64,000 nucleotides of DNA from NCBI GenBank assembly GCA_017558005.1, contig JAFYWN010000014.1, positions 17,902 to 81,901 of the forward strand. Direction: 5' to 3'. Origin of the DNA: Kiritimatiellia bacterium (GTDB lineage Bacteria; Verrucomicrobiota; Kiritimatiellia; RFP12; DVOR01). The translations under genes and the position numbers were made by a program. The notes below the pieces were generated by a model. The model was not told the origin of the DNA. It made no database searches and was given only the letters and a program-made list of their open reading frames with translations. Of this stretch, positions 13,504 through 36,808 are shown piece by piece (position 1 is the first letter of the stretch; each line of letters starts with the position of its first letter).

Positions 13504-16500
13504 ATGAAACGATTCTTGAAAAGTTTTAGTCTTCTGCTCTGCAGCGGTCTCTTCGCCATGACCGGCTGGGCCGCAGAACCTACGGCAGATTGGTCTGCAT
13601 CCTTTAATGGGGATACGACCTGTTCGGGTTTATTTAGTGGGTGGAGTGGCAATGGTGACATCCCTGCGGCGTCTTATGTAACAACACCGAATGGTTCAGG
13701 TTTTATTGCAGGTACTTATGTGCCGTGGTGTGATAACTCGGGCATTACAGTTGCAAATTCGTTTGCATTTGCAGTTTATGCTGATTTGTCCACGGTCGCC
13801 CCAAATTCAACGATTATGGGCGTGGGTGGCGCAGCGTGGAATGGGGGCAGTGGCTTTACGTTGGCAAAAACGGCTAAGGATGAAGTTGCCGTAGTTCGTT
13901 ATGGCGCAACGGATACTGTTATCGCTAGATTGAAGAGTGACACCATTAAGACCTCCTCTTTCATGCTTTATACCGTGTCAATTGTTCAGAATGATGATTC
14001 TACAGTTGTTACGATTACGGCGGGCTCAGATTTAGTGACGAGCGAAGATACCACCAAGTACACGCCCACTGGGAATGGTTTGCAGGTCGGTGCATGTTAC
14101 GGAGATACTGCGTATGTTCAGATTGATGGTGTGAACACTACGAAAGCTGCGAATGCTATCATTGACGAAGTGCGTGCGTATAGCAGCTCTTTGACGATTG
14201 AGGAAATAACACAGTTATTGGAAGTTTTCCCCACCGTAAAACGTCCAGAAGTGATTGCAATCAATTTTGCAAATAATGCTGCTGATTTAGGGTCTAGCGG
14301 ACTCCCAACGGATGCAATTGGGTTTGAAAAGGTCGTGGAGGGTGTTACCTATGGCGGAAAGGTCGTCCCTGCGTTTTGGACAAAGACAACGGGTGGTGTG
14401 AATAATGATGGGCTTGATGTTGCAAGTACGATTGAGCGTCAGTATCGTCTCAAGTGGAGCTCAAATGCGAATACGTATCAGTCTGGAAGTACTGGGACTC
14501 TGACGGAAAAGTTAACCTATGGTTATTTGGATAATGGGGATAGTACGCAGAATCACATTGAATTGAGCGGTCTTCCGATTACGGGTTATGATGTTGCGGT
14601 GATTTTGGGTGGTGATGGCCCGAATAGTGAGAACGCACAAAATAATAAGTTCTCGCCTGTTAAGGTGAATGGCATTGATTACACCTATGATGCCGATAAT
14701 AATCTTATTCAGGGAACGACGGTCTGGGGTGTTCGCTGCAATGCAAATGCGTTGACAGAAGGGACAAATGTTATTTTTGTTCCCAATCAAATAGCTCCTA
14801 CGTTATTAATTGACACCTATTACAAAAATGAAAATGGGAATGCGGGTCGTGGTACGATTGCTGCGATTCAGGTTTTTGTTCACACGGGTAAAGAGTCTCC
14901 AGTGTTTCCTCCGTTAGGAGAGGCAACATCTTATTGGAATTTTGAGAATTCGATAGTTGACGCGAATAAAGGTGTAACGAGCTGGACGGGTGATAATGAT
15001 GCCACCAATGCGTATGTTGACTCCTATCGCAAGTCTGAACGTGGCATTGTGTACAAGGGCGCTCAAATGAGCGGTTCGCTTCATCCCTATTTGAATGGTT
15101 ATGCATGGTCATCTGAGTTTACGATTATGGCCTATGTGAATGTGGCGAAGTGTCCAGACAATGGTGTACTTGTCTCTTCTGGTGGTGCTACGAAATTGCG
15201 AAAGGTGAATAGCACAACGATTCGCTTCGGTGGTCCTAATACGTATGTGGATGCGGAATGTGCTGATTTAGCTGTTGGTTACCATTTAATTATCGCTACA
15301 TTCGGTAATGCTGGTTTGACACTTCAAATTGACAATGGTCAGGTCGCGACGAACGCGAGCAAGTCCACGATTGCAAATGGTATTCAGATTGGTGCAGAAT
15401 GGGGTGGTGGTACACATTCGTATAACAACGACGGCGGTGCAGTCATTGATGACCTTGCGATTTGGAACAAAGTGCTCACGTCTGATGAGATGGATTTATT
15501 AAAGGCCTGTTATCCTGCAGCCTATCTTCCATTGAGTGTGGCCGCAGATACGGATGCTTCGGGTGCTCTTTCTTGGAGTGAAATTACCGCAGTGGTAGGC
15601 AATCGTACTACTTGGAATGTCTCTGGCGAAGTGACGATTTCGCTTGATGCAGATATTGATCCTGCTTTAACGGCCTTGACGTTGATTCCTGCCAATGCCT
15701 CGGGTGATAAGCTCACAGTGACAGGCGCAGGCTCGTTGTATGGCGATACCTTTGCTTTGACCACGGATATCCTTGTGGATATTACGAATCAGAAGAATAA
15801 TCCCACAATTACCCTCTCTGGTGCAGGGAATGTGACGATTCGTAAGGGTAATGGGTCGACTGCCGGCGGTATCGCTCCTGTGGCGAATAATTACACGGGT
15901 ACCTTCACCGTGGATGATGGTCAGCAGATTACACGTATGGGTGGCGATTTAACAATCCCGTTCACCGTGGGTACGAATGGTGCGAAGTTGCACTCGAATG
16001 ATGGCAATTGGACGGTCTCTTCCAAGATTTCTGGCTCTGGCACGTTGACGATTGCTTCTCCAAGTCGTTGGATTTCTGTGACCAATAATACAAACGACTT
16101 CACGGGTAATGTGGTCGTTGAATCGGGCACCCTCTATGTGGGTAACAAGGGCAGTGAAAATAGCGGCTCTGATGCGCAATTGGGTGATGAGAATAGCATT
16201 TATACGGTGAAGTCGGGGGCTACGTTCTACACGCACCTCGGTGGTAATGATAAGATCTTTGCACCCAATATCACGCTTGAAGATGGCGCCACTTTTGGTA
16301 ACCGCGATGGTCACGTTACTTACAATGGTGATATTACGATTAATGGCAATGCCACCTACAACTTCTATTGGAACAAGCAGAATACGTTCTCTGGCGTGGT
16401 TTCGGGTACAGGAACATTAATGATTAATGGCCCTGATAATGAAGATGGTACTTGCGAAATTCGTTTGACCAATGCGGCAAATACCTTCACGGGTACCTAT

Positions 16501-19500: not shown

Positions 19501-22473
19501 CTTGATGGTGCTATTGTTTTGGATGGCATTGAAGGTGAAACGACAACTTTCACCGATGGTGTGCTCTCTGTCACCTTTGCCGCAAATCCGACCCTTACCG
19601 GTAATGCTTGGTGGTGGGACTACGAATTCAATGGTGATGTCCGCAGCACTGGTAGTGATACTGCTCCTTTGGTGCTTGAAGGTGATGGTACCTCTTATGT
19701 GACCGTAGATGGTGACAATAAAGCGCTTTACTTCCAAAAGACGCCTTATCGTGATAATGGTAATGATGTTAAGGCACGTTTCGCAGAGGTTGACACCTTT
19801 ACTGCTGTGATGTATTGCCAGCCAGGTAATCACAACAATGTGCCGCTTGTTGGCTTTGGTTCTACAACGCAGAATGATAAGGTTGCTGTTGTGCTTGCCA
19901 CGGGTGCTGTTGCCGCGGATGGCGAGATGGCGATTATGTTGGTGAAGGGCGACAACCATGTGGTTACCCCTCTTGCAGACAATCTCGTTGTCCCTAATGC
20001 GACGAAGGCATATCACCTCTACGCCTTTACCTTTGATGCTCAGGCAGATAAGACGGTGATCTCCGTGTATGTGGATGGTAAGCTGAAGAAGACCACAACG
20101 GTGAATGAACACTTCCGTGTTTCAAATGGTTTCCAGATTGGATCGATCCATGGTGGTGTAATGACAAACCAGACCGGCTTGTCAAAGTATCCCGACAGTG
20201 GTGACTCGGGTACGATTGACTTCCTCCGTGTAACGAAGGGCCTCCTCTCTGCTGATGCAATGCGTGCTTTGGCAGAAGCTTATCCCTATCATTCTGAGAA
20301 TGGTACGGCGACACGTACGGTTGCTGAAGCTACCGTCAACTGGGTCGCTGATGATACCTGGTCACAGGCAATGCCAAATGCTGACGCCGTTCAACAAGCT
20401 GCTCCGAATAATGGTACAAATGTGACCTTAACAGCAAATGTTGCGACGGAAGTGACGGTTAACCTTACTGAAGCTGTTACTTACGAAACGGTGACGGTGG
20501 TAGGTGATGATGCAGTGACCTTCAAGAAGGGTGAGGCTGCTACGTTTAAAGCTGGCGACATCACCATTGGAACGGATGTGACGATTGAGTATGGTGCGAT
20601 TGACGTGGACACCTTGATTGTGAATGGTGGTAAGACCTTGACCTTTGACTTCACAGGTTATGACTTTAACTCCATCTATGCAAGCAAGACGCTTCCCTTG
20701 ACGGGCCTTGCCACCTTGGGTGAAAATGCTGATGTGGAAGTTGCATTGCCTACATTGCCGGCTTACCTCACTGCTGAATGTGTCTTTGATGCAAACAAGA
20801 GTGAATACGCCTTGGCAATCACGGTCACGGGCACGCTCGCTGCTACGATTGAAAACAATGCCATTACCTGGAAGGTTGGCAACACGGTTGTTACGCCTCC
20901 GGCAGACTTGACAGCAGTGGAATCCATCACGATGACGGTGGTGGGTGACAACTCCGTGGCGTTGACAGAAGACATGACGTTGGCATCTGTTGTCCTTACG
21001 GGTGAAGGTGGCTCGGTGACGTTTGAAAGTGGCAAACTCACGGTGAACAACACCTTGACGATGAATAATGTCAATGTGATGGCAACGCCTGAAACGCTCA
21101 TTGCCGCAGTGGTGACGGGTACTGCTGGAACTGAAACCTTCACGATGCATTCGCAGGCATCTTATAGCCATGAGCAGGCATTTGCAATGCGCTTTGAACG
21201 TTGCGCGCTCACAAAGACAGGTTCGGGTACGGTCCCGATTGCTGTAAATGGCGTTGAATTGGATACGGTCAATGTGACGCTTAAGAATGGTGCGTTGCAG
21301 TTGGCAAGTCGCGGTGGTGATCCTCAAATTAAGGACACGACCTTCACCTATGTGGATGCGAACGAAGATGGTGTCGCTGACGGTGAATTGACCAACTATG
21401 GTTGGATTCACTCGACAACCACAACAACCTTCATTGTTCCCGAAGGTGTGACAGGTCGTGCCGTGGTGGGTAGCTGCCTGACCAATACGGGCGCTGTAGT
21501 GAAGCAGGGTGCTGGTACGTTGGTGCTCGGTATCATGAAGACGAATAACGCAAATCCGTACACGGGCGCAACGACGGTTGAAGCGGGTATGTTGGCGTAT
21601 CACATTGTGAATAACTCTGCAAATCCGTTCGTTATGAGCAGCGTCATCACCGTGGAGGCTGGTGCAGCAATCAAGGGTGTTGAAAACTGCACGTTCGCTT
21701 CGCTCTCCTTTGAAGCTGGTGCTATCGTTGATGCGACGGCTGCCCCTGTGGTGGCCACCGCTGTGATGCTTCCCACGGGAGACGGCGCTAAGGTTGTCCT
21801 CAAGAAGAATGCTTCTGGTGACGTCCTTACGTATACGGGTGATGTTCCTAACATGAACCTCTTCACGACGGCGACGACGCTTGAAAATGCAATGCTCGGC
21901 GTGAAGGTCAATGAAGGTGTCGTGACCCTCGTCTTGACGCAGGTGTCCGTGCCTGAAGTGGTTATCCCGGATGATGCTACGGAAGAAGTACGTGCTGAAC
22001 TCGTAAAGCAACAGGCTGAAGCTGAAGTGGCCGCCCAGGTTGTCGCTGACGCATTGGCCGCAAGCACGGACGAGGAAACACGTACTGCAAATGTCTCCGC
22101 GATTGAAAATCCTGGTGCTGCATCGATTATTGAGAACGCAGATGTTGAGTTGACTCAGAATGAGGGTGAGGAAACTTACACAGCGAAGTTCACCTACAAC
22201 TTTGGTGTCAGCGCCCTCGATGTGGTGAATATCGAAGGCCAGTTGCATGTGGTTATTATGGCTAAATTGGATGAGCAGAATAACCATAGGTTTGCTAATG
22301 GTGTTACGGTGACGGTGACGGATGGTAATAAGGAAATTGCCGAAGCCGTGGCTGTGACCGACATGACAGGCACTACGACAACGCAGTCTCCGGCGGGTAA
22401 TACGCGTTACTTCCGCTTCCCGCTCCCGACGGATCTTGGCACACATTCGTACAAGGTGCGCGCGACAAAGTAA
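13504..22473 (+). CDS. giant secreted repeat protein 1 (2,989 aa): signal peptide, LamG/ConA-like lectin domains, PATR-like beta-strand repeats, conserved C-terminal domain
   Basis: The signal peptide is MKRFLKSFSLLLCSGLFAMTGWA. LamG-type tail motifs are IDEVRAYSSSLTIEEI, IDDLAIWNKVLTSDEM and IDFLRVTKGLLSADAM. PATR-like motifs are TNTNTYIGGTDIATNATLTMGN and NANPYTGATTVEAGMLAY. It is a paralogue of the downstream giant gene. Confidence 0.9.
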   Translation: MKRFLKSFSLLLCSGLFAMTGWAAEPTADWSASFNGDTTCSGLFSGWSGNGDIPAASYVTTPNGSGFIAGTYVPWCDNSGITVANSFAFAVYADLSTVAPNSTIMGVGGAAWNGGSGFTLAKTAKDEVAVVRYGATDTVIARLKSDTIKTSSFMLYTVSIVQNDDSTVVTITAGSDLVTSEDTTKYTPTGNGLQVGACYGDTAYVQIDGVNTTKAANAIIDEVRAYSSSLTIEEITQLLEVFPTVKRPEVIAINFANNAADLGSSGLPTDAIGFEKVVEGVTYGGKVVPAFWTKTTGGVNNDGLDVASTIERQYRLKWSSNANTYQSGSTGTLTEKLTYGYLDNGDSTQNHIELSGLPITGYDVAVILGGDGPNSENAQNNKFSPVKVNGIDYTYDADNNLIQGTTVWGVRCNANALTEGTNVIFVPNQIAPTLLIDTYYKNENGNAGRGTIAAIQVFVHTGKESPVFPPLGEATSYWNFENSIVDANKGVTSWTGDNDATNAYVDSYRKSERGIVYKGAQMSGSLHPYLNGYAWSSEFTIMAYVNVAKCPDNGVLVSSGGATKLRKVNSTTIRFGGPNTYVDAECADLAVGYHLIIATFGNAGLTLQIDNGQVATNASKSTIANGIQIGAEWGGGTHSYNNDGGAVIDDLAIWNKVLTSDEMDLLKACYPAAYLPLSVAADTDASGALSWSEITAVVGNRTTWNVSGEVTISLDADIDPALTALTLIPANASGDKLTVTGAGSLYGDTFALTTDILVDITNQKNNPTITLSGAGNVTIRKGNGSTAGGIAPVANNYTGTFTVDDGQQITRMGGDLTIPFTVGTNGAKLHSNDGNWTVSSKISGSGTLTIASPSRWISVTNNTNDFTGNVVVESGTLYVGNKGSENSGSDAQLGDENSIYTVKSGATFYTHLGGNDKIFAPNITLEDGATFGNRDGHVTYNGDITINGNATYNFYWNKQNTFSGVVSGTGTLMINGPDNEDGTCEIRLTNAANTFTGTYKLAGKNNNRKIKLVACATTGAASYNLTNAYSILAFSGDVTANTLIGSAGSVESNASGTARTVTLTGNSDVRSLAVSNDITFAVTAGETYITSTTKATVTDGATVKVVLTADQKLSGLTLENVTVNDGGTVVFLDIDGTTELKSSDSNAYEAAQTSTYTVTVEGGSWNKDPANGDAITIAFGDITNRTLDESILPQGVTHLAGLTATGANASITAAFAAIADAVIIEDTLSIVGTEEETTVAGVISGDGQVKIAAGKVKFTNTNTYIGGTDIATNATLTMGNANAIGTTGNITGAGTLKFSGFVPANLSNLTVAEGGWTGTFYMMNRPSSGTFPVNEWGNANSTICLENCSGYLTPAGGATITSNFRVEGDGWRSQNGNGNAQFTFTGALSGSGKLEVATATPEAGNFYKFTGDVSKFTGYVNVTNNHRVVFGDADSQGNGKITIAKNVTIAAQKTWSAVNGIAIMEGATLTVNGAITGAIANAGTLIYGVDTTVSNTISGAGAIQVAAAKTVDLSAATLTNFAGTYAVGEGATLKLPLTATANKEIALGTDAKLLVVLNDEQKGAEQSVTVIGGSVQFVDANGNVLCNGASYSMPTYIVGEGWTGANLTANANITIDFAETTDQTVDLTAILGSVTTLSKLTVKGTNGGTITNTNSTVTACPIVEVLAGGRTNVPEALTSLATTVTGPTAEGSLLYVTGETTATTSRYPYTGNRHFETIKFTDSQSVGGDIDGYTVAKGETIEFLHNGGVRYQTSLVVDGGTIRTTQNTHVWLIGAENAVFTLKAGAADFSSISVDNDKDGLLIGYMDSTHTFDIQGGTLDASNTSIVGYQPGSHYRQSGGLVKTKGFRQNGSNFTEMTLTGGTIELGSGGLPNLGMDNATFSGATIHAVANNTVAEALNMTAASTLSAAADTTMTVTSTFTGAATLSIAGAGTVDLSGATIPNTIALNVAAGATAVVAPDQVSTFAKVTVPEGATLKVKLTVDCLISGRLNCTLGAESTLDGAIVLDGIEGETTTFTDGVLSVTFAANPTLTGNAWWWDYEFNGDVRSTGSDTAPLVLEGDGTSYVTVDGDNKALYFQKTPYRDNGNDVKARFAEVDTFTAVMYCQPGNHNNVPLVGFGSTTQNDKVAVVLATGAVAADGEMAIMLVKGDNHVVTPLADNLVVPNATKAYHLYAFTFDAQADKTVISVYVDGKLKKTTTVNEHFRVSNGFQIGSIHGGVMTNQTGLSKYPDSGDSGTIDFLRVTKGLLSADAMRALAEAYPYHSENGTATRTVAEATVNWVADDTWSQAMPNADAVQQAAPNNGTNVTLTANVATEVTVNLTEAVTYETVTVVGDDAVTFKKGEAATFKAGDITIGTDVTIEYGAIDVDTLIVNGGKTLTFDFTGYDFNSIYASKTLPLTGLATLGENADVEVALPTLPAYLTAECVFDANKSEYALAITVTGTLAATIENNAITWKVGNTVVTPPADLTAVESITMTVVGDNSVALTEDMTLASVVLTGEGGSVTFESGKLTVNNTLTMNNVNVMATPETLIAAVVTGTAGTETFTMHSQASYSHEQAFAMRFERCALTKTGSGTVPIAVNGVELDTVNVTLKNGALQLASRGGDPQIKDTTFTYVDANEDGVADGELTNYGWIHSTTTTTFIVPEGVTGRAVVGSCLTNTGAVVKQGAGTLVLGIMKTNNANPYTGATTVEAGMLAYHIVNNSANPFVMSSVITVEAGAAIKGVENCTFASLSFEAGAIVDATAAPVVATAVMLPTGDGAKVVLKKNASGDVLTYTGDVPNMNLFTTATTLENAMLGVKVNEGVVTLVLTQVSVPEVVIPDDATEEVRAELVKQQAEAEVAAQVVADALAASTDEETRTANVSAIENPGAASIIENADVELTQNEGEETYTAKFTYNFGVSALDVVNIEGQLHVVIMAKLDEQNNHRFANGVTVTVTDGNKEIAEAVAVTDMTGTTTTQSPAGNTRYFRFPLPTDLGTHSYKVRATK

Positions 22474-22496
22474 TTGATTGCGTGTAATCTAAAACT

Positions 22497-22530
22497 CAAG
22501 CGGTGGCAGCGATGCCATCGCTTCCTTTTT
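22497..22530 (+). terminator. rho-independent terminator after giant gene 1
   Basis: Hairpin AAGCGGTGGCA-gcga-TGCCATCGCTT followed by CCTTTTTT. Confidence 0.7.
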
Positions 22531-22680
22531 TACTAGGCTGGGGGGAGTGCTAGCGCCGTAGGCGCGGTCGCTCCGCTCCCGCGTGGTTCTGAGTTCTAGG
22601 GGCGGAGTTTTGCGGTTTCGCACGCTTCGTAGATGTGTTGGCTTTTCGTGGGCGTAGCCCTAGTGTTACGAAAAGAGCAA

Positions 22681-22817
22681 CGCATCTCCTAGTGTTCATT
22701 GTGTTAAAACCGCACTAGCATCGCATTCGCTTCGCAGAAGCACGAGCTAGCATCCACGGGGCCGCAGGCCATCGCGCCGTGGTGCGGTCGTGCGCCTCGC
22801 GTAGTTCGCGGAAAAAT
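22681..22817. repeat. about 137 nt conserved upstream element, copy B
   Basis: Near-identical to 13200-13337. In this copy it lies between an inverted pair GGTTCTGAGTTCTAGG (22585-22600) and CCCAGAACTCAGAAC (about 22946-22962). Confidence 0.85.
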
Positions 22818-26000: not shown

Positions 26001-29000
26001 TATGTTAAGTTGATGTCTTCCCATGTTGGCTCGGCAAGTGGTAATAAGGTTTATAACATTACTGGTGAAACTGGTGGTGCAAAGCCGAATGTCTACTTGT
26101 ATGGCAGTAAGGGCTGGGGCATGTCGGAGAACAGCGTTGTTCGCGATGTGAAGTTGATTGTGCCGTCTGCTAATAACAATGACTTCTGGTTACGCCCTGG
26201 TGCAACGGATGCGACGGTTGACCTTGAACTTCAAGGCCGTAAGTTGACAGGTGACTCAGGTAATGGCGCCATTGTTTTGGGTGACTTTGTCACGAATGCT
26301 GAAGTGGTCGCAAATGGTAAGTCGTTGAGCGTTCAGACTGGTCGCATCTCGGGTACGGCTGGGTTTGATTCTGCAATTGCAGTTGATAATTCTGGAGCAG
26401 GCTCCTTTACGGTAGCACGTACTTATGGTGCGGCATTGACCATCAATAGTAATGGTAGCGTTACGGTCGCGGAGGGCGGTTCGTTGACGGGCACGGTCTC
26501 CGTGACGGGCACGCTTACCTACGCAACGAATGCTACGCCTACGAATACGATCACCAATAATGGTACGATTACTGCAGATACTGCAACCGTGGATTTGACG
26601 GGCGCAACGATTTCTGGTAATGGTACCTACGGCGTGACGAATAATGGTACGTTGATTTTGAAGGCTGGTACTGAAAATGGAGCTTCGGTAACGAGCGGCA
26701 CCTTAAAGCTTCTCCTTTCGGAAGAAGACCTTGTAAAGGGTTATACCGCAAATGTTGCAGATGGCACGAAGGTCACCTTCGTTGTCGCAGGTGATACGGA
26801 TGGTGATGGCGATGGCTATGATACTGTGACTGAAGGTGTGGATGGTAATGAGTACGCTGCGCCAATGAATGTCTGGACGCCTTCTGAAGATGCAACATGG
26901 GCAAATATTGCCAACTGGTCCAATGAAGCACTTCCTGGTGAAACGGATAATGTTGAAATTCAGATTACGGAAGATACGGAATTGGAATTGACTTCCGATG
27001 TGACGGTCGCAGCTTTGCGTGTAGTCGGCTCTGGCACGCTCACGATTACTGGCGGCAAGTTGACGGCGACCTTCATTGATGCAGAAACGGCGATTAATGC
27101 AGGGGATACCACGCTCGCTTTGGTGCCGATGACCATCAGTGAAAATGTTTCTGTTACCTATAACACTACGGTAGATGCTGCAATGCCTGCCGTGACAGGT
27201 TTGGGTGACTTTGTCAAGACGGGTGCAGCTAAGTTGACGTTAGACAATGCCACGGCATGTGAGGCAACGATTGATGTCACGGGCGGTACGCTTGAATTGT
27301 CTGGTAACCCTGGCAGTGCATGGACGTATGCTTATTCGGGTGTGTATCGCTTCATTGCTCGTGAAAGTACGACGATTGATATCGCGAACGCGTTTATTGA
27401 CATGCCTTCTACGGAATCTGAAATTACGCTTAAGGGGGGCGCACTCTTAAACATCAAGAATGGTAATACTTGGGAAAATCGTCGTAGCATCGGTGCAAAG
27501 ATTCTCATTGAAGAATCGTCTGCCGGAAAGCCTGCAATCATTAAGGGCTCTACGAATGGTGATTATTCTAAGTTGACGGGTGGCATCACGGGTTCTGGCG
27601 TCCTTGAAATTCAGGGCAATGGTAATACCTTTGCAATTACGGGCGCGATTAAGGACCAGGAAAATGCACAGCTCGCTGTGAAGATTAATACTGCGAATGG
27701 CGTGACCTTCTCTGGTGCAAATACCTACACTGGTGGAACGGAAGTTGCCGCAAATGCTTTGCTTATGGTGAATACCTTCGGCAATCTTGGTAACTCGGGC
27801 ACGATTAATGTGCAGGGTAAGTTGCAGTTCTCCAATAGTAGCAATAGTGGTACTAACAATCAAGACGCGAATGCGTGGGCTCGTTTGCAGGGAAGTGGAA
27901 CTATCCAGTTTGAAAATGCTTCGGGCAATAATTGGTATGCAATCCGCTCGATTGCAACAACATTGGATGTCGTGAATAATAATCGCGATCCTAATACTCA
28001 AGATACCGATGACCATGGTGGTCTTGTTGTTACGCATGACGCTACGATTGGTACGCTCTCTGGTGAAGGCTGGTTCCGTTCTGACCTGAACAATTCAAAT
28101 CGTACGTTGACGATTGTGCAGAGCAAGGCTTCTGAATTCTCGGGTTACTTCAAGAGCTATGCGAACTCTGGTGGTCGTAAGTTGAATGTGCTCGTTCAGT
28201 CGAATGATGCGACTCCGAAGACGTTGACGTTGTCGGGTAATAGTATTCATGGTGCAAATGACGCAGATGTGAATACCTTGACCATTGACACAACGGGTTC
28301 TGTTTGCTTGACGGGTTCGTGGCAGGGTAACCTGACGAACAATGGTATTATCTCTGGCCGTGGTACGATTACGGGCACGCTTACCTTCGGTAACGCAGCA
28401 ATGTTGGATGTGTCGACAGGTGAAATCCTCACGGCCAATACGCTTGCAGATTTGCCGGCTGAGCTTACCGTGAAGGTGGCCAATGCTCTTGAAGTGGGTG
28501 GTGCGCTTGACATCATGACCACGATGGCTACGCCCAATACCGCATCGACGACGGTGACCGTAAAGGTGGGTAAAGAAGCGGTAAAGGGCATCTATTCGCT
28601 CGTAGCCACGGGCACCACACTTCAGCTTGTGCGTGGTGAAGATTCGCTCATGGGCTCCGTCTATCTCGCTGATTCGAATGCAGCTTTGACTGAAAAGGTT
28701 GATTCGGGCAAGATGGGTGATGGCGATCAGTGGGGCGTTCAGATTGATATGGATGCCGCGAATCCGTATGGTCCCGGCTGGCAGGCAACGCAGGCACTGA
28801 AGACCTTCTCTGTGGTTCGTGCAAAGAATGACGTTTCTCAGTCTTGGGAAAACATAACGGTCTCAATTGTGGATATTGAAGACACAACGACCGTTTTGGC
28901 TACTTCCGAGGTGGGCGTTGAAGAAACAGATTACATTTTGACCTACTCGGGTGGTGGTACGGAAGGTCGTAAGTTGTTGACCTTCACCTTTGCTACCGCG

Positions 29001-32000
29001 GTGAACTTGGATGCGTCGAAGACCTATCAGTTCCGCTTCAATGAAGCTCGTAAGATTCGTATGATTCACATTCAGTCCATTTCGGATGGCGCGAAGAATA
29101 CGAGTGCAATCAATGTGTTGAATAGCAATTTCGTTGTTGAAAAGGCTACGGAGTACACGCCTATTGTGGAGCTCGGTGTTGAAATTCCTGCATTGGTGAT
29201 TAATGCTTCGGCTGTGCCTGTGGATGTGGCAGAAGTCCCGACGACGTTGGCGCTTGACACCGCATCCTTCATGGGTGGTTATGGCACGACTTATACTGTG
29301 TTGAATTACACGGGTGAAGGCGATGCAAATTGGCAGGGTATGACTTACTATGGTTTACCTGAAGGCGCAGAAGTGTTCACGACGGATAAGACTTGGGGCT
29401 TCACCATGAAGATGATCCGCGTGCTTCCGATTGGTGACTCGATTACGGCTGGTTTGGTGACGTATCACAACAGCTCTGCTAATTGGCACGTGGCTGGCGG
29501 TTATCGTCTCCCGCTTTATCAGTACATGACGCAGGCTTATGGAGAAGGTAAGGTGAAGTACCTCGGTACGTCGACTTATCCGACCTCTGTAACTGGCGAT
29601 AGTTCTCAGAATAGCTATGAAGACCGTGACATTGATTCGGTGACGTTGACAGAAGCAGGTCAGCTGAATCATGAAGGTCACAGCGGTGCGACATTGGATG
29701 GTAATAATTGCCAGATGTATGACCGCTTCAAGAACCAGAAAGTCTTGGATATCATTGCAGAGCAGGGTGCTCCTGATGTGATTACGCTCCACCTCGGTAC
29801 GAATGACTTCGGCATGGGTAGCGATACGGTTGATACGGCTAAGGCTGACATGAAGAAGTTGCTCTTCTTGCTTAATGGCTCGGGTACGGGTGAGGCTGGC
29901 GATACTCCGCTCTATCCGAATGCAACCATCTTCGTGGCAAAGATTATCCCGCGTTCTGGCGATATCACGACGAATAAGCTCAAGCCCTTCAATGAATGGT
30001 TGACGACCTATGTCGAAGAACTCAACTCTGACAAGTTGGTCTTGGTTGATTTGAATATGGCATGCAACTATGGTCTCTTGCGTCACGATGGCTTGCATCC
30101 TTCTACGGAAGGTTATAGCCGCATGGCACAGAATTGGTTCGTCAACATTGAAGCTGCTTTGCCTCCGATGGGCGCAGATGCTTCGATTGCCTCCGTTGAT
30201 GCTCGCGTGGCGAACACCTTGAAGGTGACCACCAATAAGGCAATCAATGCTGCGCTTACGCAGACATGGACGCTTGATAAGGATGCGACTGTTACGGCTG
30301 CTAAGATTGCAGATGATAAGCGCACAGTCATCTTGACGGTGGAAGGTGTTGTTGCTAACACGGAATACACCTTGACGGCAACGAACCTCTTTGCAGCAGA
30401 TGACTCTGTGACAAAGACCTTCTCCACGACCGCTGATATTCACACCCCGAAAACGGATGTGGTTGAAAGTGATCGTGCAGGTGCTGTAAACACGGCTGGC
30501 GTCTTGAAGGCCGCAGAATGGACGACCTTCGCAGGCTTCGCTACGGGTTATACCTCTCCGATTGGCTATATGCCTGAATCGGGTCGTCCGTGGCAGCTTG
30601 ACGTGCGTGGCACGAACGTGCCGACGGTGACGGATGGTGTTCTTTCCTTGAATGGTGCTCCGCTTACGGTGAACTTCAAGGATGGTCACATTGGTACGAC
30701 AAAGAGTGTGCGCACGACCGTGATGGAAGTGTCAAATCTCTCTGCTGGCGATGTCCTCTTCACCGAAACCGGAAATGGTAATGAATTGAATAAGATTACC
30801 GTTGAGGATGCGGATACCTTGACTTGGAATTCTGGTTCTGTCGAAACGATTGAATTGGCAGGCTATGGCATTAACCTCACGGACGATATCCCTGAAGTGA
30901 TCACCGAAACCTTCGCTGCTATCGGCGGTGGCTATAACTGCAAGTTGACGGTCAATGGCATCGAAGTGGCTACATCTAACTGGGTTAGCTCGGGAGAATG
31001 GGTCAATGGCAATTGGACCATTGGTGCGAATAGCACGGCTACCGCAGGTAGCACGACGATGAAGCTCTATCGCCTCTCCTTCTATGAAGGTGCTGCGACT
31101 GTGGTGGTGCCGAACTTTGCCATCATCAATGTGGGTGAAGAAGCTGGTCAGTACACCTCTTGGAAGGCTGCTCAGACGGCTTTGGGCTTTGAAGATGCTA
31201 TGACAGCTGTGACGATTAACTTCACGGCTGCAGATCAGACCTTCACCTTCGATAATGCTGAAGCCGTGACGATTGATGCTGTGACGGTACAGGGCACTGC
31301 TGGCGGTACGATTGCGAAGGCTGATGGTGCTGGCACGGTGACGGCTACGAATCTCGCCATCAACACCTCGGTGAAGATGAATGATGACGCCATGGCCCTC
31401 ACGGGTGATGTGGCTATCGCAGCAGATTGCGTCTTGACCTATAATGTCGGTGACGGCATGACCGTGAACGCCACGCACTCCGGCGCAGGCTCGATCGCAG
31501 TGACGAGCGCTGGCGTGTATGGCAGCACGGGCTTGACCGTAACCAAGACTTGCGGTGTGAACGTCTCCGTGAGTGACTACGCTGTGTATGTCGCAGATGT
31601 TGAACCGGGTAATACCAATTCGGAAAGCATGACTAAGGCTTTCGCCAATAATACCACGGTGACTGTTGCCGAACAAGGCGTGCTCTCCTTGAAGCAGGGT
31701 ATCTCCTTCAATACGATTAATAGCGCAGGTACGGTTAGAGTGGACGGCACGTATACCTTAGGTTTCGGCCAGGGTGAAAATGAAGGTTCGCTCACTACCG
31801 CGCACTTGATCGTTAATACGAATAACACGCTTAAGGTGAAGGCATTCCGCGCGATTGACATGGTGGCCACTGGCACCATCTGCGTGTATGGTTCGATTGT
31901 TAAGGATGAGAATGGTTCTGCTACACCGAACTTGAAGGTGACGGCGGCTTCTACCTTGTCCATTTGGGGAACCGATGGTGCAATTAGCCTTCCGGTTATC

Positions 32001-35000
32001 TTCGAAGATGGCGCAACCATTTATAAGGCAGCGATTCGTTATGCTCCTGTAGATGACTCCATCACTTTGGGTGCTGCAGTCACCTTGCCCGCACAGTTGG
32101 CGATTACGTTGCCGAATGATGGCATGCCGACGGAAGAAACCCCAGCGGTGCTCTTGAAGACGACCGCTTTCGTAGGCAATGAAGGTGTCCATACGGCGAC
32201 CTTGAATGTGAATGGTCGTATCACTGATGAGTATGTGCTCTACAAGACGGCGGAAGCTGTGGAATTGCGTTATGCTCCGTGGACGATCGTGACGTCGGCA
32301 ACCGCTTCTGGCGATGTGAATACATGGTCTGAAGTGCTCGCAGATATGGAAGCCAAGCGTCAGCGTTTCGACACGACGGCAAATCCGTCGCTCGTGATTG
32401 ACTTCGGTTCGGGCAATGAACCTGGTACCTTCACCTTTGATATGGGCGAAGGCGATCCGTTGGATGGTAACGCTGTCTTCACGCTCGGTACGGTTACGAT
32501 TCAGGGTTCTGCAGGTGGTACGGTTGCAAAGACCGGGTCTGCAAACATCTCTGCAAATGCGACGAAGGTCAACACCAATGTTGAAATCGCACAAAACACG
32601 ATGGAACTCGGTACAACCACGCTCGCAGCAGGTTGCACCTTGACGGTGAATGACGCTGCAGCGCTCGGTACGGATGCAGGTCGCCTCACGGCAACGGCTA
32701 CGAGCACGGTGCGTGTGGTGGGTGTGAATAACAACAGCGTGAACTTGGGCAACTGGGTCAGCAACGCTTCGAACCTCACCTTGAACAATGTGAAGGCATA
32801 TCTCTACGACTGCACGATTGGTACCTTGACCTTGGAAGGTGACTTCCAGATGAATAATGGTACGACCAATAAGAAGAAAACGCAGTGCGTGACGGTGAAT
32901 ACCCTTGCTGGCACTGGCACCTTCATTGGCCATCAGAGCTCGGAAGTGTGTATCGCAGTGAATGTCAAGTCTTGGACGAACTTCACGGGCTCCATTGACC
33001 TCTCGAATGAGAAGTCGAAGAACACCATCTTCTTCTTCGGTACGGCTCCTCAACGCTTTATTGATGCCGCTTCGAATGCGTATGACGCAGATGATGCTCA
33101 GGAATACTTCGCAAATGATTACGGCACCGTTTATGTGACGGTAGGCAACACGGTGGCTACGGCTGCTACTTCTACTTGGAAGCTTCAGAAGCTCGTGGTG
33201 GAAACGAACGCAGCCTTCCAGATTAACGGCTGGGCGACAATCGCAACCTCTTGCACGGGCGCTGTGACGGTTGAAAATGGTGGCGTTTTAGACCTCCGTA
33301 CGCTTACGGATGCTCAGCTCGAGGTTATCAATGTGACGGTGAAGGCGGGTGGTCGTTTGCTCGTGAACACGGGCGCAACGGTGCCGGCTATCATCGTCTT
33401 CGAAACGGGCTCCATCCTCGGTGTTGCTACGAAGCATGTGGAAGATGTGGGTAACGCTACCTTGACGGTGAATGTGGATGGCACTGCTGCTACCGTGCCC
33501 ACGATTAAGGGTTATCACATGGACGGTGTGACCGAACTCGATAACTGGAAGAAGAATGATCAAACTTCTTCTGAAGGTGAATTCAAGTTCAACTTTGATC
33601 CTGTCTTCGATGGTGAACTCTGCTGGTGGGCGTATGAATTCGATAACGAAGTGAATACATCGCCTGAATCGAATCTTGGACCGATTAGCACCGGTCGCGA
33701 TAAGGGCCGCATGAACTTCGACGGTCGTGGCGACAGCAACCGCGTCTGCCAGGATAACGAATATGTTGATCATGGCGATGGCACGAAGGCTATTCGCGTG
33801 GCGTCCTCTCCGTGGCGTAATGTGGATGGCGGTTACCCGACTGCCTTCACGGCCGCGATGTATGGTACGCTCACCGAAAATCGTAATCGTATCATCATGG
33901 GCTTCGGTTCTTCTTACAATCAGAAGTATACGATCGCTTTGGTGACGGGTGCCTCCACAGATGAAGTGCGCCTTGTCTTGCAGAAGGGGTGGAATGAAAA
34001 TAATACGGATTATCCTGAAGATGCCGTGATTACGCTTGCCACCACCACGGTGCCGAATGCAGTCACCGAAAATCACCTCTTCGCCTTCTCTTATGAGCAG
34101 TTCGATTCTGATGCAGACAAGACCTTGGACTCGACGCGCATTATCTTCTATGTGGACGGTGAAAAGTATCAGCCCTTCACGGCGAAGGCTATCATTCCGC
34201 TCGGCAATGGCTTCCAGATGGGCTCCATTCATGGCGGTTGGCACAATTCGCTCACGCGTATGAATGGCGATGACGTAAACTGCACGATGGAATATCTCCG
34301 CATTTACGATCAGATTCTCCCTGAATCCGTCTGGACGGCGATGTCTAATGAGTACTCTTACATGTCGAAGAATGGTCGCGCCACTCGTACGATCGTGGAG
34401 GGTCAGGATACGACATGGAATGAAGGTACTGAGTGGACGCAGATCCGCGCTGTGAAGGATGGCAATGGTGGCTATGTGCTTGATGCAGAAGGTCATGTGA
34501 CCTTTGATAACGGCACGGATGTTGAAAAGCCTGACCATGGCGAAAATGTTGGCACGCAGGTGGTGCTCAATGTTGATGGCGCGAACACGCTCTTCTTGAA
34601 CGAATTCTACTCGAGTCCGATTCAGGAAGGTGAAGTTTCTAAGCTCTACTATGAACGCTTGGAAATCAATCCTGTGGAAGGTGGCGATGAAGACAGCCTC
34701 ACCCTCTGGGCGGGTCGTTTGAATCCTGAGATTGAGGAAGAGGATTCGCTTAAGAATAGCCAGTCGGCTGTGATTACCGTTCAGGGTTACACGAAGATTA
34801 ATACGAATGTGACCATGGCGCACAACGTGGCCTTCCTCTCCGGTCCTGTGGCCGTGGCAGAAGGTAAGACCTTGACCTTCGACTTCTCGGGCTTCGATGT
34901 GATGAAGGTGCCCTCGATGCCGACGGAATACCGCCTCACGGGCTTCCTTGATGAAGTGACGCGTGATCGCGTGAAGCACAACTTCCGTGACGATGACTTG

Positions 35001-36494
35001 ACGAAGAATGCGCGCTCGGTGGACTTGGGTTATAAGACCGATGTCAATCAGTACACCTTTAAGGTGGATCGTCACCCTGTGACGGCATACTTCCGTGACC
35101 AGGATGATGTTGATTTGGGTGCAGATGGCGTGAATGCCTCTCAGACGCCAATCAACTTCAACGACCTCTACTACAAGTGGCAGGGTCTTGCGATTGGTAA
35201 GCAGATGGACTGGGATGTGGACACCGTGGATGCTGACGGCAACCATGTGGACGAACACGTCTTGGCGAACTTCGTCTCTGTGGATGCAGAAACGAAGCAG
35301 CCCAAGATTGTGACCGTGACCTTGGACTCCGTGTCGGATGAAGCCATCAATCTCACCTTGCCTGAATCTGCTCTCAAGAAGCAGGTGACGCATGGTGACG
35401 ATAACGAAGGTAATCCGATTTGGGAAGAAGTTAACATGCTCGGTGCTGAGCAGCTCATCGTGGGCGACAAGGTCACCGTGGATTATAATGGTAATCCTTT
35501 GACGTTGGCTCCTGCACTTAATGCGGCTTCGGCAGAAACCTCGGGTGTGATTCGTGCACAGGGCTTCACGGTTGATACTTGGCGTGCGAACCTCTCGGTG
35601 ACGGGCGGTGCGCTCGCTGGTGTGGGCAAGATTAGCGGTAAGGTGACCTTTGAAGCAGGTGCGTCCTTGGACGCTTCTGCCACGACTGTAGGTAGCTGCC
35701 TCTCCGCAAAGGATGCCGACCTCACGAACCTCAAGGCGATTACGGTGAATGTTGATGCTGCAGCTGGTAAGACGCTGAAGGTGCTTGATTTGCCTGCAGG
35801 TCACACCGCAAAGTCGCTTGAAGGCTGCACGGTGACGGCTGTTAATGGCGAAGGCGAAACCGTGGCCACTTGGACTGAATCGGGTGCTACGAATCCGACA
35901 CTCGTGGTTGTCCGCGCAGATGGTCTCTATGTGACAGGTCGCCCTGTCGTGAAGGCTGGCGAGACTGAAGTCACGAATAATGACCTCACGCTTCCGCTCG
36001 CACGTCGCGCCGCAGAACTCAGCGCTACATCGGTAAGCCTCACGGGTGTGGTGAACATGGCAGGTAAAGAAGTGGATGCATCTGTGGCTGATGCTGCAGA
36101 AGTCTTCACGAATGTCGCCTTCGATATGACCGAAACGCCTGTGAATGGTGTCGTCACCGCTAAGCTCAAGTATGACTTCGGTGTCAGCCAGATCAATGTC
36201 GTGACGATTGATAGTATTCAGTATGTCGTGGCAGAGTTGATTGTCTCGAATCATACGGACCTTGGCCAGAATACTGCGGCGTATGCTGCGGATACCACGA
36301 TTGATGTGACCGTGAAGGTGGGTAATCAGAGCGTGGTCGCCGATAAGGATATTGTCGAGGCCGCTGATATGACGGGTGCAGAAGTCGCGCCTGCGGCAGA
36401 GCTCCCGGCCTCGACGCGCTACGTCCGCTTCCCGATGCCGAGTGGTAACGGCACCTTTGAGATTAAGGCGCGCGCCGCAAAGAGTGCTCAGTAG
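23091..36494 (+). CDS. giant secreted repeat protein 2 (4,467 aa): signal peptide, PATR-like beta-strand repeats, SGNH hydrolase domain, LamG-like domains, conserved C-terminal domain
   Basis: The signal peptide MSKFFKSLLLLLSAGLFVVTGWA closely resembles that of giant gene 1. PATR-like motifs are LTGANTYDGATTVAFGAKLVAN and FSGANTYTGGTEVAANALLMVN. The LamG tail is MEYLRIYDQILPESVW. The C-terminal roughly 110 aa are homologous to giant protein 1. Confidence 0.9.
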   Translation: MSKFFKSLLLLLSAGLFVVTGWAVTLINPNPTASFTDFSTIPAGTTTEAKTLTNNGVTLTLPVGITKNDDGSIYLNNKSGAKVTLSAETQTIAVVLDLVEAPVAPTNPGNTSYTLLVNFDSGTDIAAAYTGSGIRGAWGGSLNGRTAEKAWTAEATKVLAATSSTGGTTIRVKDNTDANKWNEGGLKARGNRYQVIDIGPTLTLKGIYVYDTYQDDIPSFTEVSAYERTIEGGANWAATDAWATGVTNPEAGTSAMLNVTGDATLMMNEASNALNYIEIKGSGSLTITGSNTLTAASTIVKANTIVETSASLGAVTLENDATLTVKSLNAFTSIAGEGTLALDLGDEADVEYTGNFPTTVKLSLLSGSLTYKHNSAHRAIKALNIAEEATFADVADYKYNLTINDKFSGAGTYLVKVPTNSSQTDGWRYLFVNGDAAEFTGNVKLQIQHNANQNQNGGAPYRTGVRLTGTAFGGTVTAEATGDGVTDADLAYAHLDIDESLTMTKAQSFAGKIDVASGKTLTAANGVTLTNAGKLEGTGTIAAPLNYSSTAETTFGGVISGEGTLTVSKGVLTLTGANTYDGATTVAFGAKLVANTTGAATWDYNDHDANIVVNGEVELTSTNECYRGFEGAGKITVKGSVILGNTGDSGYLSGLCAFTGTLVVEANNTLTLKTWGQQHKTTLAALEAYGNIEMSRNGGTPSTVDIETAQLKGVGIINVSSLKLTDNATIDVTAGAVTATTTATLPNAFTVKISAEQDAIGVVTVMTSPNVVITDKIATVLIGKDEAEYTLHADAATVWVEKAGVELLETVEVTFTEGGTLVLSDALDGKALAPSATLEINFGNKGENEPNPGIFEFDCDAAFAQITITGTNGGTITKTGTVTVTASSTTIDADTTVNAGAANLGTVTINAEKTLTVKEDWTNVATNVPTTATNLGKIRFEGGSAETPIVFSMGDAANGNPGALVMAPGAYVKLMSSHVGSASGNKVYNITGETGGAKPNVYLYGSKGWGMSENSVVRDVKLIVPSANNNDFWLRPGATDATVDLELQGRKLTGDSGNGAIVLGDFVTNAEVVANGKSLSVQTGRISGTAGFDSAIAVDNSGAGSFTVARTYGAALTINSNGSVTVAEGGSLTGTVSVTGTLTYATNATPTNTITNNGTITADTATVDLTGATISGNGTYGVTNNGTLILKAGTENGASVTSGTLKLLLSEEDLVKGYTANVADGTKVTFVVAGDTDGDGDGYDTVTEGVDGNEYAAPMNVWTPSEDATWANIANWSNEALPGETDNVEIQITEDTELELTSDVTVAALRVVGSGTLTITGGKLTATFIDAETAINAGDTTLALVPMTISENVSVTYNTTVDAAMPAVTGLGDFVKTGAAKLTLDNATACEATIDVTGGTLELSGNPGSAWTYAYSGVYRFIARESTTIDIANAFIDMPSTESEITLKGGALLNIKNGNTWENRRSIGAKILIEESSAGKPAIIKGSTNGDYSKLTGGITGSGVLEIQGNGNTFAITGAIKDQENAQLAVKINTANGVTFSGANTYTGGTEVAANALLMVNTFGNLGNSGTINVQGKLQFSNSSNSGTNNQDANAWARLQGSGTIQFENASGNNWYAIRSIATTLDVVNNNRDPNTQDTDDHGGLVVTHDATIGTLSGEGWFRSDLNNSNRTLTIVQSKASEFSGYFKSYANSGGRKLNVLVQSNDATPKTLTLSGNSIHGANDADVNTLTIDTTGSVCLTGSWQGNLTNNGIISGRGTITGTLTFGNAAMLDVSTGEILTANTLADLPAELTVKVANALEVGGALDIMTTMATPNTASTTVTVKVGKEAVKGIYSLVATGTTLQLVRGEDSLMGSVYLADSNAALTEKVDSGKMGDGDQWGVQIDMDAANPYGPGWQATQALKTFSVVRAKNDVSQSWENITVSIVDIEDTTTVLATSEVGVEETDYILTYSGGGTEGRKLLTFTFATAVNLDASKTYQFRFNEARKIRMIHIQSISDGAKNTSAINVLNSNFVVEKATEYTPIVELGVEIPALVINASAVPVDVAEVPTTLALDTASFMGGYGTTYTVLNYTGEGDANWQGMTYYGLPEGAEVFTTDKTWGFTMKMIRVLPIGDSITAGLVTYHNSSANWHVAGGYRLPLYQYMTQAYGEGKVKYLGTSTYPTSVTGDSSQNSYEDRDIDSVTLTEAGQLNHEGHSGATLDGNNCQMYDRFKNQKVLDIIAEQGAPDVITLHLGTNDFGMGSDTVDTAKADMKKLLFLLNGSGTGEAGDTPLYPNATIFVAKIIPRSGDITTNKLKPFNEWLTTYVEELNSDKLVLVDLNMACNYGLLRHDGLHPSTEGYSRMAQNWFVNIEAALPPMGADASIASVDARVANTLKVTTNKAINAALTQTWTLDKDATVTAAKIADDKRTVILTVEGVVANTEYTLTATNLFAADDSVTKTFSTTADIHTPKTDVVESDRAGAVNTAGVLKAAEWTTFAGFATGYTSPIGYMPESGRPWQLDVRGTNVPTVTDGVLSLNGAPLTVNFKDGHIGTTKSVRTTVMEVSNLSAGDVLFTETGNGNELNKITVEDADTLTWNSGSVETIELAGYGINLTDDIPEVITETFAAIGGGYNCKLTVNGIEVATSNWVSSGEWVNGNWTIGANSTATAGSTTMKLYRLSFYEGAATVVVPNFAIINVGEEAGQYTSWKAAQTALGFEDAMTAVTINFTAADQTFTFDNAEAVTIDAVTVQGTAGGTIAKADGAGTVTATNLAINTSVKMNDDAMALTGDVAIAADCVLTYNVGDGMTVNATHSGAGSIAVTSAGVYGSTGLTVTKTCGVNVSVSDYAVYVADVEPGNTNSESMTKAFANNTTVTVAEQGVLSLKQGISFNTINSAGTVRVDGTYTLGFGQGENEGSLTTAHLIVNTNNTLKVKAFRAIDMVATGTICVYGSIVKDENGSATPNLKVTAASTLSIWGTDGAISLPVIFEDGATIYKAAIRYAPVDDSITLGAAVTLPAQLAITLPNDGMPTEETPAVLLKTTAFVGNEGVHTATLNVNGRITDEYVLYKTAEAVELRYAPWTIVTSATASGDVNTWSEVLADMEAKRQRFDTTANPSLVIDFGSGNEPGTFTFDMGEGDPLDGNAVFTLGTVTIQGSAGGTVAKTGSANISANATKVNTNVEIAQNTMELGTTTLAAGCTLTVNDAAALGTDAGRLTATATSTVRVVGVNNNSVNLGNWVSNASNLTLNNVKAYLYDCTIGTLTLEGDFQMNNGTTNKKKTQCVTVNTLAGTGTFIGHQSSEVCIAVNVKSWTNFTGSIDLSNEKSKNTIFFFGTAPQRFIDAASNAYDADDAQEYFANDYGTVYVTVGNTVATAATSTWKLQKLVVETNAAFQINGWATIATSCTGAVTVENGGVLDLRTLTDAQLEVINVTVKAGGRLLVNTGATVPAIIVFETGSILGVATKHVEDVGNATLTVNVDGTAATVPTIKGYHMDGVTELDNWKKNDQTSSEGEFKFNFDPVFDGELCWWAYEFDNEVNTSPESNLGPISTGRDKGRMNFDGRGDSNRVCQDNEYVDHGDGTKAIRVASSPWRNVDGGYPTAFTAAMYGTLTENRNRIIMGFGSSYNQKYTIALVTGASTDEVRLVLQKGWNENNTDYPEDAVITLATTTVPNAVTENHLFAFSYEQFDSDADKTLDSTRIIFYVDGEKYQPFTAKAIIPLGNGFQMGSIHGGWHNSLTRMNGDDVNCTMEYLRIYDQILPESVWTAMSNEYSYMSKNGRATRTIVEGQDTTWNEGTEWTQIRAVKDGNGGYVLDAEGHVTFDNGTDVEKPDHGENVGTQVVLNVDGANTLFLNEFYSSPIQEGEVSKLYYERLEINPVEGGDEDSLTLWAGRLNPEIEEEDSLKNSQSAVITVQGYTKINTNVTMAHNVAFLSGPVAVAEGKTLTFDFSGFDVMKVPSMPTEYRLTGFLDEVTRDRVKHNFRDDDLTKNARSVDLGYKTDVNQYTFKVDRHPVTAYFRDQDDVDLGADGVNASQTPINFNDLYYKWQGLAIGKQMDWDVDTVDADGNHVDEHVLANFVSVDAETKQPKIVTVTLDSVSDEAINLTLPESALKKQVTHGDDNEGNPIWEEVNMLGAEQLIVGDKVTVDYNGNPLTLAPALNAASAETSGVIRAQGFTVDTWRANLSVTGGALAGVGKISGKVTFEAGASLDASATTVGSCLSAKDADLTNLKAITVNVDAAAGKTLKVLDLPAGHTAKSLEGCTVTAVNGEGETVATWTESGATNPTLVVVRADGLYVTGRPVVKAGETEVTNNDLTLPLARRAAELSATSVSLTGVVNMAGKEVDASVADAAEVFTNVAFDMTETPVNGVVTAKLKYDFGVSQINVVTIDSIQYVVAELIVSNHTDLGQNTAAYAADTTIDVTVKVGNQSVVADKDIVEAADMTGAEVAPAAELPASTRYVRFPMPSGNGTFEIKARAAKSAQ
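29410..30150 (+). other. SGNH/GDSL hydrolase domain embedded in giant protein 2
   Basis: All four SGNH blocks appear in order: block I IGDSITAG, block II HEGHSGATLDG, block III LHLGTNDF, block V HDGLHPSTEGY (D-x-x-H). Confidence 0.7.
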
Positions 36495-36782: not shown

Positions 36783-36808
36783 ATGCTTACACGCGGAGCG
36801 TGGTTCAT

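Follow-up and report, generated by a model that had tools for sequence, protein, structure and literature searches.

What two adjacent genes for giant secreted proteins do for a gut bacterium, and how their products might leave the periplasm and be held at the cell, is the question raised by a 64,000-nucleotide (nt) stretch of DNA (hereafter the window; assembly GCA_017558005.1, contig JAFYWN010000014.1, positions 17,902 to 81,901) from a ruminant-gut Kiritimatiellia metagenome-assembled genome (MAG) that lies near 'Candidatus Spyradenecus'. Ruminants and horses commonly harbour gut Kiritimatiellia of the RFP12/Spyradenecus group, uncultured bacteria that are thought to forage on complex glycans. 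Gene A (13504-22473, forward strand; 2,989 amino acids, aa) and gene B (23091-36494, forward strand; 4,467 aa) together occupy 22 kb of this genome, and are deposited at NCBI as products of a Kiritimatiellae MAG under the names 'autotransporter-associated beta strand repeat-containing protein' (MBR5591637.1) and 'hypothetical protein IKW38_03765' (MBR5591638.1), respectively. Our literature searches found neither a paper on A or B nor one on giant Kiritimatiellia proteins. The account to which we incline, with some reserve, is that A and B are ancient tandem paralogues which encode lineage-restricted, Sec-exported fibrous proteins, with glycan-binding or glycan-deacetylating modules in their N-terminal parts and a stalk at the C-terminal end.

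Both genes are intact. The first-pass annotation, made from the DNA sequence of the window, had placed the two open reading frames (ORFs) exactly, and had cautioned that they might prove to be interrupted in other assemblies; instead, five or more independent assemblies (ENA ERZ28655949, ERZ27256904 and ERZ28019155; Logan SRR12529249 and SRR12529255) encode residue-identical A and B proteins with unchanged neighbours. Together with the existence of full-length orthologues, this indicates that neither gene is an assembly artefact, a chimera or a pseudogene. The proposed paralogy of A and B is likewise borne out by BLASTP, which aligns the two proteins in two strong blocks, namely a region resembling laminin G (LamG) domains (A 2000-2402 versus B 3477-3952; 30% identity, E 3e-33) and a C-terminal region (A 2720-2989 versus B 4172-4464; E 1e-11). 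Elsewhere there are weak matches between beta-rich stretches, and no internal repeats are detected in either protein at the BLAST level. Each protein begins with a signal peptide (MKRFLKSFSLLLCSGLFAMTGWA in A, 13504-13572; MSKFFKSLLLLLSAGLFVVTGWA in B, 23091-23159; both forward strand). These had been described as near-identical, and they are indeed shared, at a measured identity of 14 of 23 residues; their form supports Sec-type secretion of both proteins, as predicted from sequence.

Domain searches assign recognisable modules to a minor part of either protein. In A, Pfam identifies Laminin_G_3 (PF13385) at aa 536-662 (15109-15489; 36.5 bits) and, marginally above the model's cutoff of 27.6 bits, in the LamG-type module at aa 2000-2270 (19501-20313; 27.9 bits), so that two regions of A exceed the threshold; the corresponding module of B (aa 3477-3800, 33519-34490) is named through its homology to that of A. 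B additionally contains an SGNH/GDSL esterase domain (aa 2111-2348, 29421-30134; PF13472, 48.8 bits; PF00657, 41.5 bits), in which blocks I, III and V are present with intact GDSIT, GTND and DGLH motifs, and whose nearest relatives of solved structure are the CE3 carbohydrate acetyl esterases 5b5s and 5b5l (E 5e-5), and 2vpt. Sequence searches of the PDB with full-length A and B recover nothing beyond this domain, and Pfam searches of separate tiles (the N-terminal regions, B 1880-2110, a putative Ig-like linker and B 2440-2700) return nothing significant. The first-pass annotation had attributed thousands of central residues to beta-strand repeats of the PATR type, which overstates their extent. 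A single PATR repeat (PF12951) surpasses the cutoff of 27 bits in A (aa 2666-2698, 21499-21597; 32.8 bits), where the related model TIGR02601, the sole NCBIfam match for A or B, also scores above threshold (26.6 bits, cutoff 19.85); B has one sub-threshold PATR match (aa 570-587; 18.8 bits) and no match to TIGR02601, such that A qualifies as a PATR/TIGR02601 protein and B falls short. A relaxed PATR-like motif recovers some ten units, six in A and four in B against an expectation of 0.1, clustered at A aa 773-1413 and B aa 336-660. The composition of both proteins is rich in threonine (13%), glycine (10%), asparagine (7%) and valine, and poor in arginine (2%). Judged from this composition and the few PATR units, the remainder of A and B presumably adopts a beta-solenoid fold.

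Relatives of both genes occur within a narrow group of organisms. Scanning a genome collection with the LamG-type module identified 17 loci, all in gut MAGs (yak, sheep and rumen), whose titles name Candidatus Spyradenecus sp., Kiritimatiellae or Kiritimatiellia bacterium, or uncultured Lentisphaerae, Spyradenecus being placed under Lentisphaerota in the NCBI taxonomy. Every match lies within an open frame of 1,466 to more than 4,000 aa. Among these loci, which we refer to by number, L006 (89% identity) and L007 (also P0014; 3,959 aa) carry orthologues of B, while L013 (72% identity) and L016 carry A-type relatives, and full-length orthologues span 2,794-4,723 aa. Conservation is unevenly distributed along the proteins: the C-terminal 1,900 or so residues of B-type proteins are 40-66% identical and the N-terminal 2,600 or so are weakly or not alignable, and variation in A-type proteins is confined to the first 200-300 aa. 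Two other lineages repeat the tandem of A followed by B: the order in L039 is fab genes, the acyl carrier protein gene, A (2,794 aa), a NYN gene and B (4,220 aa), and in L041 it is A, NYN and B (4,259 aa). In both, a gene encoding a 227-aa NYN protein, with a fraction of G or C at third codon positions (GC3) of 0.30, lies in the spacer between the giants (18386-19921 in L039; 8381-10000 in L041). The NYN gene is absent from the spacer of the window (22474-23090), which holds repeat copies only. As an A-type gene stands alone in L037 and L013, and a B-type gene in L023, pairing is recurrent rather than obligatory, and the idea of an obligate two-gene module is not upheld.

The most distinctive part of both proteins is their C-terminal domain (A aa ~2855-2989, 22066-22470; B aa ~4320-4467, 36048-36491). 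The domain, which the first-pass annotation had already noticed to be homologous between A and B, comprises about 130 residues with the motifs YDFGV, FA.GT.V and RYFR.P in succession, and KVRA.K at its end. It has no match in Pfam, in NCBIfam or among PDB sequences. A word-indexed protein search was nearly blind to this family, returning four, two and one short fragments for the C-terminal domain, the LamG-type module and a 23-sequence alignment, respectively, and never A, B or their giant relatives, which are in the collection; its negatives for giant proteins are thus unreliable, and an exhaustive HMMER search was needed. Run against 1.84 billion representative proteins, the latter yielded 38 matches at E <=1e-3, three of which are repeat-protein false positives and about 33 of which we take to be true. 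In approximately 31 carriers, which range from 428 to 4,723 aa, at most a few residues follow the domain before the protein ends. The architectures to which it is fused are those of cohesin, PATR/G8, LamG and GDSL proteins, and among the carriers are a cohesin protein of 514 aa, one PATR/G8 protein, and several without a Pfam hit. By profile comparison, the diverged ends of L018 and L016 can be added to the family (96% and 94% probability, respectively). An AlphaFold2 (AF2) model built from the 23-sequence alignment (pLDDT 89.9, pTM 0.82; an earlier model from six sequences, with pLDDT 50, was discarded) predicts a short helix and a beta-sandwich, for which Foldseek comparison with the PDB and BFVD retrieves, at best, generic Ig-like noise (E 0.04, TM ~0.33). 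The first-pass annotation had allowed that the C-terminus might belong to a known sorting or anchor domain, and these profile and structure searches assign it to none. Many carriers also share the signal peptide M[SK]KF[FL]KS..LLL..G.F..TGWA, which A-type and B-type proteins have kept although they are otherwise at most 30% identical; no conserved neighbour gene accompanies the carriers across eight loci. As a separate observation, the giants of L010, L011, L014, L015, L017, L019 and L020 display at least three further recurrent C-terminal modules, with the motifs PGL[WYF]Y[GA][IV]K..., ...[WY][TA]LGL...KP... ending in VRYY., and a terminal ...K.[VA].G.FFM[AT]Y, the last of which resembles the beta-signal of outer-membrane proteins.

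Taken together, these features suggest how the proteins may work. Each gene would be transcribed alone from a strong sigma-70-like promoter, as a message with a hairpin at the start of its 5' untranslated region (5'UTR) and a terminator of its own, and the signal peptide would be cleaved after TGWA. The C-terminal part, composed of the LamG-type module, a beta-rich stretch and the novel beta-sandwich domain, may form a cell-proximal stalk and an attachment or targeting end, and the fast-evolving N-terminal part would bear the working modules: LamG/ConA-like lectin modules in A, and in B a CE3-like SGNH acetylesterase which, to judge from its motifs, is apparently active. We infer that, at the cell surface, these modules attach to glycans of the host or its diet and remove acetyl groups from them, a reading in keeping with the GH89 and NamZ enzymes encoded nearby (see below), which fit a glycan-foraging lifestyle. 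The surface location, the anchored end, the glycans acted upon and the part played by the C-terminal domain are proposed readings of these features, in distinction to the paralogy, intactness, domain content and conservation gradient of the proteins, and the terminal position and isolation of the C-terminal domain, which are direct results of the comparisons. Several considerations weigh against this account. Most of both proteins is without a domain assignment in Pfam or NCBIfam, and their putative beta-helical nature is deduced from composition and a few PATR units; expression and localisation are predictions from sequence; no machinery genes linked to any family member were found in the window or at the loci of eight relatives, and a folded protein of 300-450 kDa is an unlikely substrate of a type II secretion system. 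Nor is the C-terminal domain universal, since other LamG-containing giants of this lineage carry unlike modules at that end.

The regulatory regions of A and B are consistent with two separate transcription units, since each gene possesses its own promoter and its own terminator, and the ends of these units are more alike than their interiors. The annotated similarity in promoter architecture and terminators was confirmed. The sigma-70-like promoter of A (TTGACA-18-TATACT, 13401-13430, forward strand) is kept in the orthologous locus L039, and that of B (TTGACA-18-TAGAAT, 22989-23018, forward strand) in L039 and L041. The 5'UTR of A contains a hairpin (GAGAGGAG...CTCTCTC, 13445-13465, forward strand), followed by AATAGGAAAAC ahead of the ATG, and is kept in L039 and also in L037, despite the differing promoter region of the latter; the hairpin of B (CGGGAAAAGCCCTCGGGCTT, 23030-23050, forward strand) is kept in L039, L041 and L023. 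The conserved, gene-specific parts are therefore a promoter-proximal block, the 5'UTR with its hairpin, and an AATAGGA-type ribosome-binding region, which persist in orthologues even under a differing promoter context. The intrinsic terminators of A (22498-22523) and B (36523-36550), both on the forward strand, have in common a 22-nt core which appears nowhere else in the window, where no chance matches are expected.

A further similarity between the two upstream regions has a different origin. The conserved 137-nt upstream element of the first-pass annotation is present, as a 141-nt match of 95% identity (13196-13336 and 22677-22817), and it is not specific to the giant genes: it is a dispersed repeat akin to the repetitive extragenic palindromic (REP) elements, which leaves the idea of shared regulation through it unsupported. 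Both copies lie upstream of the -35 boxes, and hence outside the predicted transcripts. The core of the repeat, some 85 nt with sharp bounds and unrelated flanks, is at least 93% identical among aligned copies and encloses an 18-bp imperfect palindrome (hairpin) that shows no covariation. In one related metagenome assembly (JAEIGA01), a 40-nt part of the core occurs exactly 14 times on 12 contigs, and blastn detects at least 20 copies in both orientations beside ordinary-sized genes; the repeat is therefore not an operator of giant genes. Many dispersed intergenic copies with an imperfect palindrome are what characterise REP elements, a description that this repeat fits. A structured-RNA interpretation was considered and dropped, given z-scores of about -1.3 on both strands, the lack of an Rfam match and the lack of covariation, and the small ORFs in the two intergenic regions exhibit no meaningful conservation between copies. 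More broadly, near-identical sequence upstream of two paralogues can reflect a genome-wide REP-like repeat rather than a regulatory element.

Two flanking genes, which we regard as context outside the A/B module, are of interest in this connection, as they resemble REP-associated tyrosine transposases (RAYTs). One (10139-11299, forward strand, 386 aa; NF047646, E 8e-6, below the curated cutoff) is bracketed by repeat arrays at 9879-10217 and 11299-11582; the other (36783-37817, forward strand, 344 aa; NF047646, E 6e-6, below cutoff), which contains the HUH-type motif PDHLHL, by tandem arrays at 36570-36777 and about 37794-38173. Neither ORF has a Pfam match. The same gene as the second follows the B-type gene in L041 (23205-24110), and a diverged version follows that in L023 (22353-23219). 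Like REP elements and bacterial interspersed mosaic elements (BIMEs), the upstream repeat is short, bounded, palindromic and intergenic, with many near-identical copies in both orientations, and the likeness extends to RAYT-like genes bracketed by repeat arrays within the same window; the repeat differs from classic REPs in the greater length of its core, and the RAYT-like ORFs from typical RAYTs in being about twice the usual length and in scoring below the NCBIfam cutoff. The association between this repeat and the RAYT-like genes consists in co-occurrence within the window. Separately, the window contains GC-rich intergenic repeat families at 4075-4299, 5052-5211 and 43032-43293, as well as the four arrays given above, some copies being dispersed and others arranged in tandem with a unit length of 50-52 or 104 nt, and the genome seems unusually rich in REP/BIME-like arrays.

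Three other explanations of A and B merit consideration alongside that of ancient, glycan-directed surface fibres. The nearly invariable terminal position of the C-terminal domain on unrelated passengers, down to the 514-aa cohesin protein, its want of a match to any known family or fold, and the retention of the TGWA signal peptide among otherwise divergent A-type and B-type proteins, could be explained if signal peptide and domain were the two ends of a dedicated, hitherto undescribed sorting or anchoring pathway for barrel-less giants of Kiritimatiellia, comparable in logic to the C-terminal domains of the type IX secretion system (T9SS) or to YSIRK signals paired with LPXTG. No machinery was found, however, and the family is small (about 33 representatives), with at least two carriers per genome here; sister giants use other C-terminal modules, and the terminal position could equally reflect common descent of a structural cap. 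The T9SS tail models TIGR04183 and TIGR04131 are matched by one of 23 members of the domain family (E 0.016) and by none of the others, a lone match which is noise, and Foldseek hits include no T9SS C-terminal domain structures. We consider such a pathway possible and rather unlikely, and hold the narrower proposal, that the beta-sandwich and the TGWA peptide serve as its address label for barrel-less giant PATR-type proteins, at least as tentatively. If the latter were true, it would provide a handle on how barrel-less 'autotransporter-repeat' proteins of the Planctomycetes-Verrucomicrobia-Chlamydiae (PVC) bacteria exit the periplasm. A more conventional solution would be that A and B are type V substrates, either autotransporters or TpsA exoproteins, for which a barrel or partner was missed; PATR/TIGR02601 repeats of the sort present in A are typical companions of autotransporters, both proteins combine Sec signal peptides with a beta-rich composition, and the NCBI name of A points in the same direction. 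This is very improbable, and largely refuted, as Pfam and NCBIfam searches at E values up to 0.01 detect neither the 12-strand barrel of type Va (PF03797) nor the two-partner secretion (TPS) domain of type Vb (PF05860), the last 150 aa are modelled confidently (pLDDT 90) as a small beta-sandwich rather than a 12-strand barrel, and no ShlB/POTRA-type partner is encoded in the window or beside eight relatives.

The third explanation holds that the A/B module is a recently acquired foreign island, which moved with the help of the flanking RAYT and REP elements, and it draws on the codon usage of the giants. The shift in codon preference which had been noted by eye relative to the fab, hemL and thrS genes is confirmed by measurement: the giants have a GC3 of 0.48 and 0.53 and these housekeeping neighbours one of 0.59-0.71 (about 0.65 overall), the corresponding fraction of T (T3) is 0.35-0.38 versus 0.17-0.29, and GGT accounts for 0.59 of glycine codons versus 0.30, with GCT, CCT and CGT also enriched. 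RAYT-like genes and REP arrays on both sides, a low-GC3 AAA_14 gene just upstream, differing chromosomal sites of the giants in L023 and L037, and the coincidence of the giants' GC3 with the whole-locus GC3 of the L037 lineage would all accord with import. Nevertheless, the family is confined to this lineage, fab-ACP-A-B synteny is retained in L039, and RAYTs are not known to move cargo. Moreover, the same GC3 and T3 offset reappears in four further genomes, in which the family members occupy unrelated sites, which marks it as a trait of the family and not of recent import, one that may reflect selection, composition or old transfer; the offset vanishes only in the L037 lineage (ERZ27297706), where GC3 is about 0.5 across the whole locus, and the GC3 of the giants stays near constant (0.46-0.53) while that of housekeeping genes varies between hosts from about 0.5 to about 0.7. 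Recent acquisition consequently appears improbable to us, less so than a type V route and more so than a dedicated sorting pathway, and ancient, lineage-restricted paralogues of fibrous surface proteins remain our preferred description of A and B. On that description, a fast-diversifying family whose variable ends bear lectin-like and acetylesterase modules supplies good candidates for the cell's main polysaccharide interface.

Other features of the window are recorded here for completeness. The AAA_14/DUF4143 ATPase gene directly upstream of A (11764-13002) has a GC3 of 0.39, far below that of its neighbours, sits elsewhere in L039, and is probably mobile or foreign. Genes for a GH89-type alpha-N-acetylglucosaminidase (NAGLU) and a NamZ exo-muramidase, at 33-2312 and 58758-59819, are consistent with scavenging of host glycans or peptidoglycan. 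At least four tandem units of about 22 nt (TGAAAT...TTTCAC, 54595-54724), which lie shortly before a cation-efflux (CDF) gene (54868), could constitute an iteron-like or operator array, and a 94-nt repeat is present in three copies of 86-93% identity (60216-60687) downstream of tRNA genes at 59950-60023 and 60038-60111.

How A and B relate to established routes of export and anchoring is best judged system by system. The statements that neither protein carries an autotransporter barrel, a PEP-CTERM or an LPXTG signal, and that no dedicated secretion, chaperone or modification gene lies adjacent, both hold: Pfam and NCBIfam detect no beta-barrel, TPS domain, PEP-CTERM or LPXTG signal in either protein, there is no hydrophobic C-terminal segment, and secretion, chaperone and modification genes are absent from the entire window. 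Specifically, there is no PEP tripeptide and no PF07589 match, and Kyte-Doolittle hydropathy over 19 residues peaks at 0.5-0.6 in the last 60 aa. A neighbouring protein in L023 weakly matches PEP_exosort, so the lineage may have a PEP-CTERM/exosortase system. LPxTG-like strings are internal in A (357 and 2397) and absent from B. Relative to type Va adhesins and type Vb TpsA proteins, A and B are alike in their Sec signal, their long beta-rich passenger, and their combination of a variable N-terminal with a conserved C-terminal end, and differ in that a beta-barrel, a TPS domain and, in the window, a TpsB partner are all absent. T9SS cargo follows a similar logic, in which diverse proteins combine a signal peptide and a variable passenger with a small beta-sandwich at their very C-terminal end, but A and B have no significant match to it in sequence or in fold, and T9SS is known from the Bacteroidota and the wider Fibrobacteres-Chlorobi-Bacteroidetes (FCB) lineage, and is not known from PVC bacteria. 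The giant repeats-in-toxin (RTX) adhesins of type I secretion systems (T1SS), such as LapA, SiiE and MpIBP, resemble A and B in size, fibrous build and lectin-like modules; these adhesins lack a Sec peptide, which A and B possess, and have the RTX repeats, C-terminal T1SS signal and adjoining genes for ATP-binding cassette (ABC) and membrane fusion proteins (MFP) that A and B lack, Pfam finding no RTX repeats in either protein and the window holding no linked transporter genes.

The closest likeness is to the PATR/TIGR02601 proteins of the PVC group, which are similarly large, Sec-dependent and rich in threonine, glycine and asparagine, with sparse G.GTL...NTYTG.T units; A passes both models and bears that name at NCBI. 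A and B stand apart from these in having one or two canonical repeats each, no barrel and a previously undescribed C-terminal domain, and B falls below the cutoffs. The kind of protein is thus familiar for PVC bacteria, its genes having already been deposited under generic names, and A and B have the appearance of variants, particular to their lineage, of the large fibrous surface proteins that are widespread in the group, rather than of a new kind of system. What is newly described is the C-terminal domain family, together with the possibility that it marks a sorting route; as such, the domain provides a searchable marker with which to seek the missing machinery by which barrel-less PATR proteins are exported or anchored.

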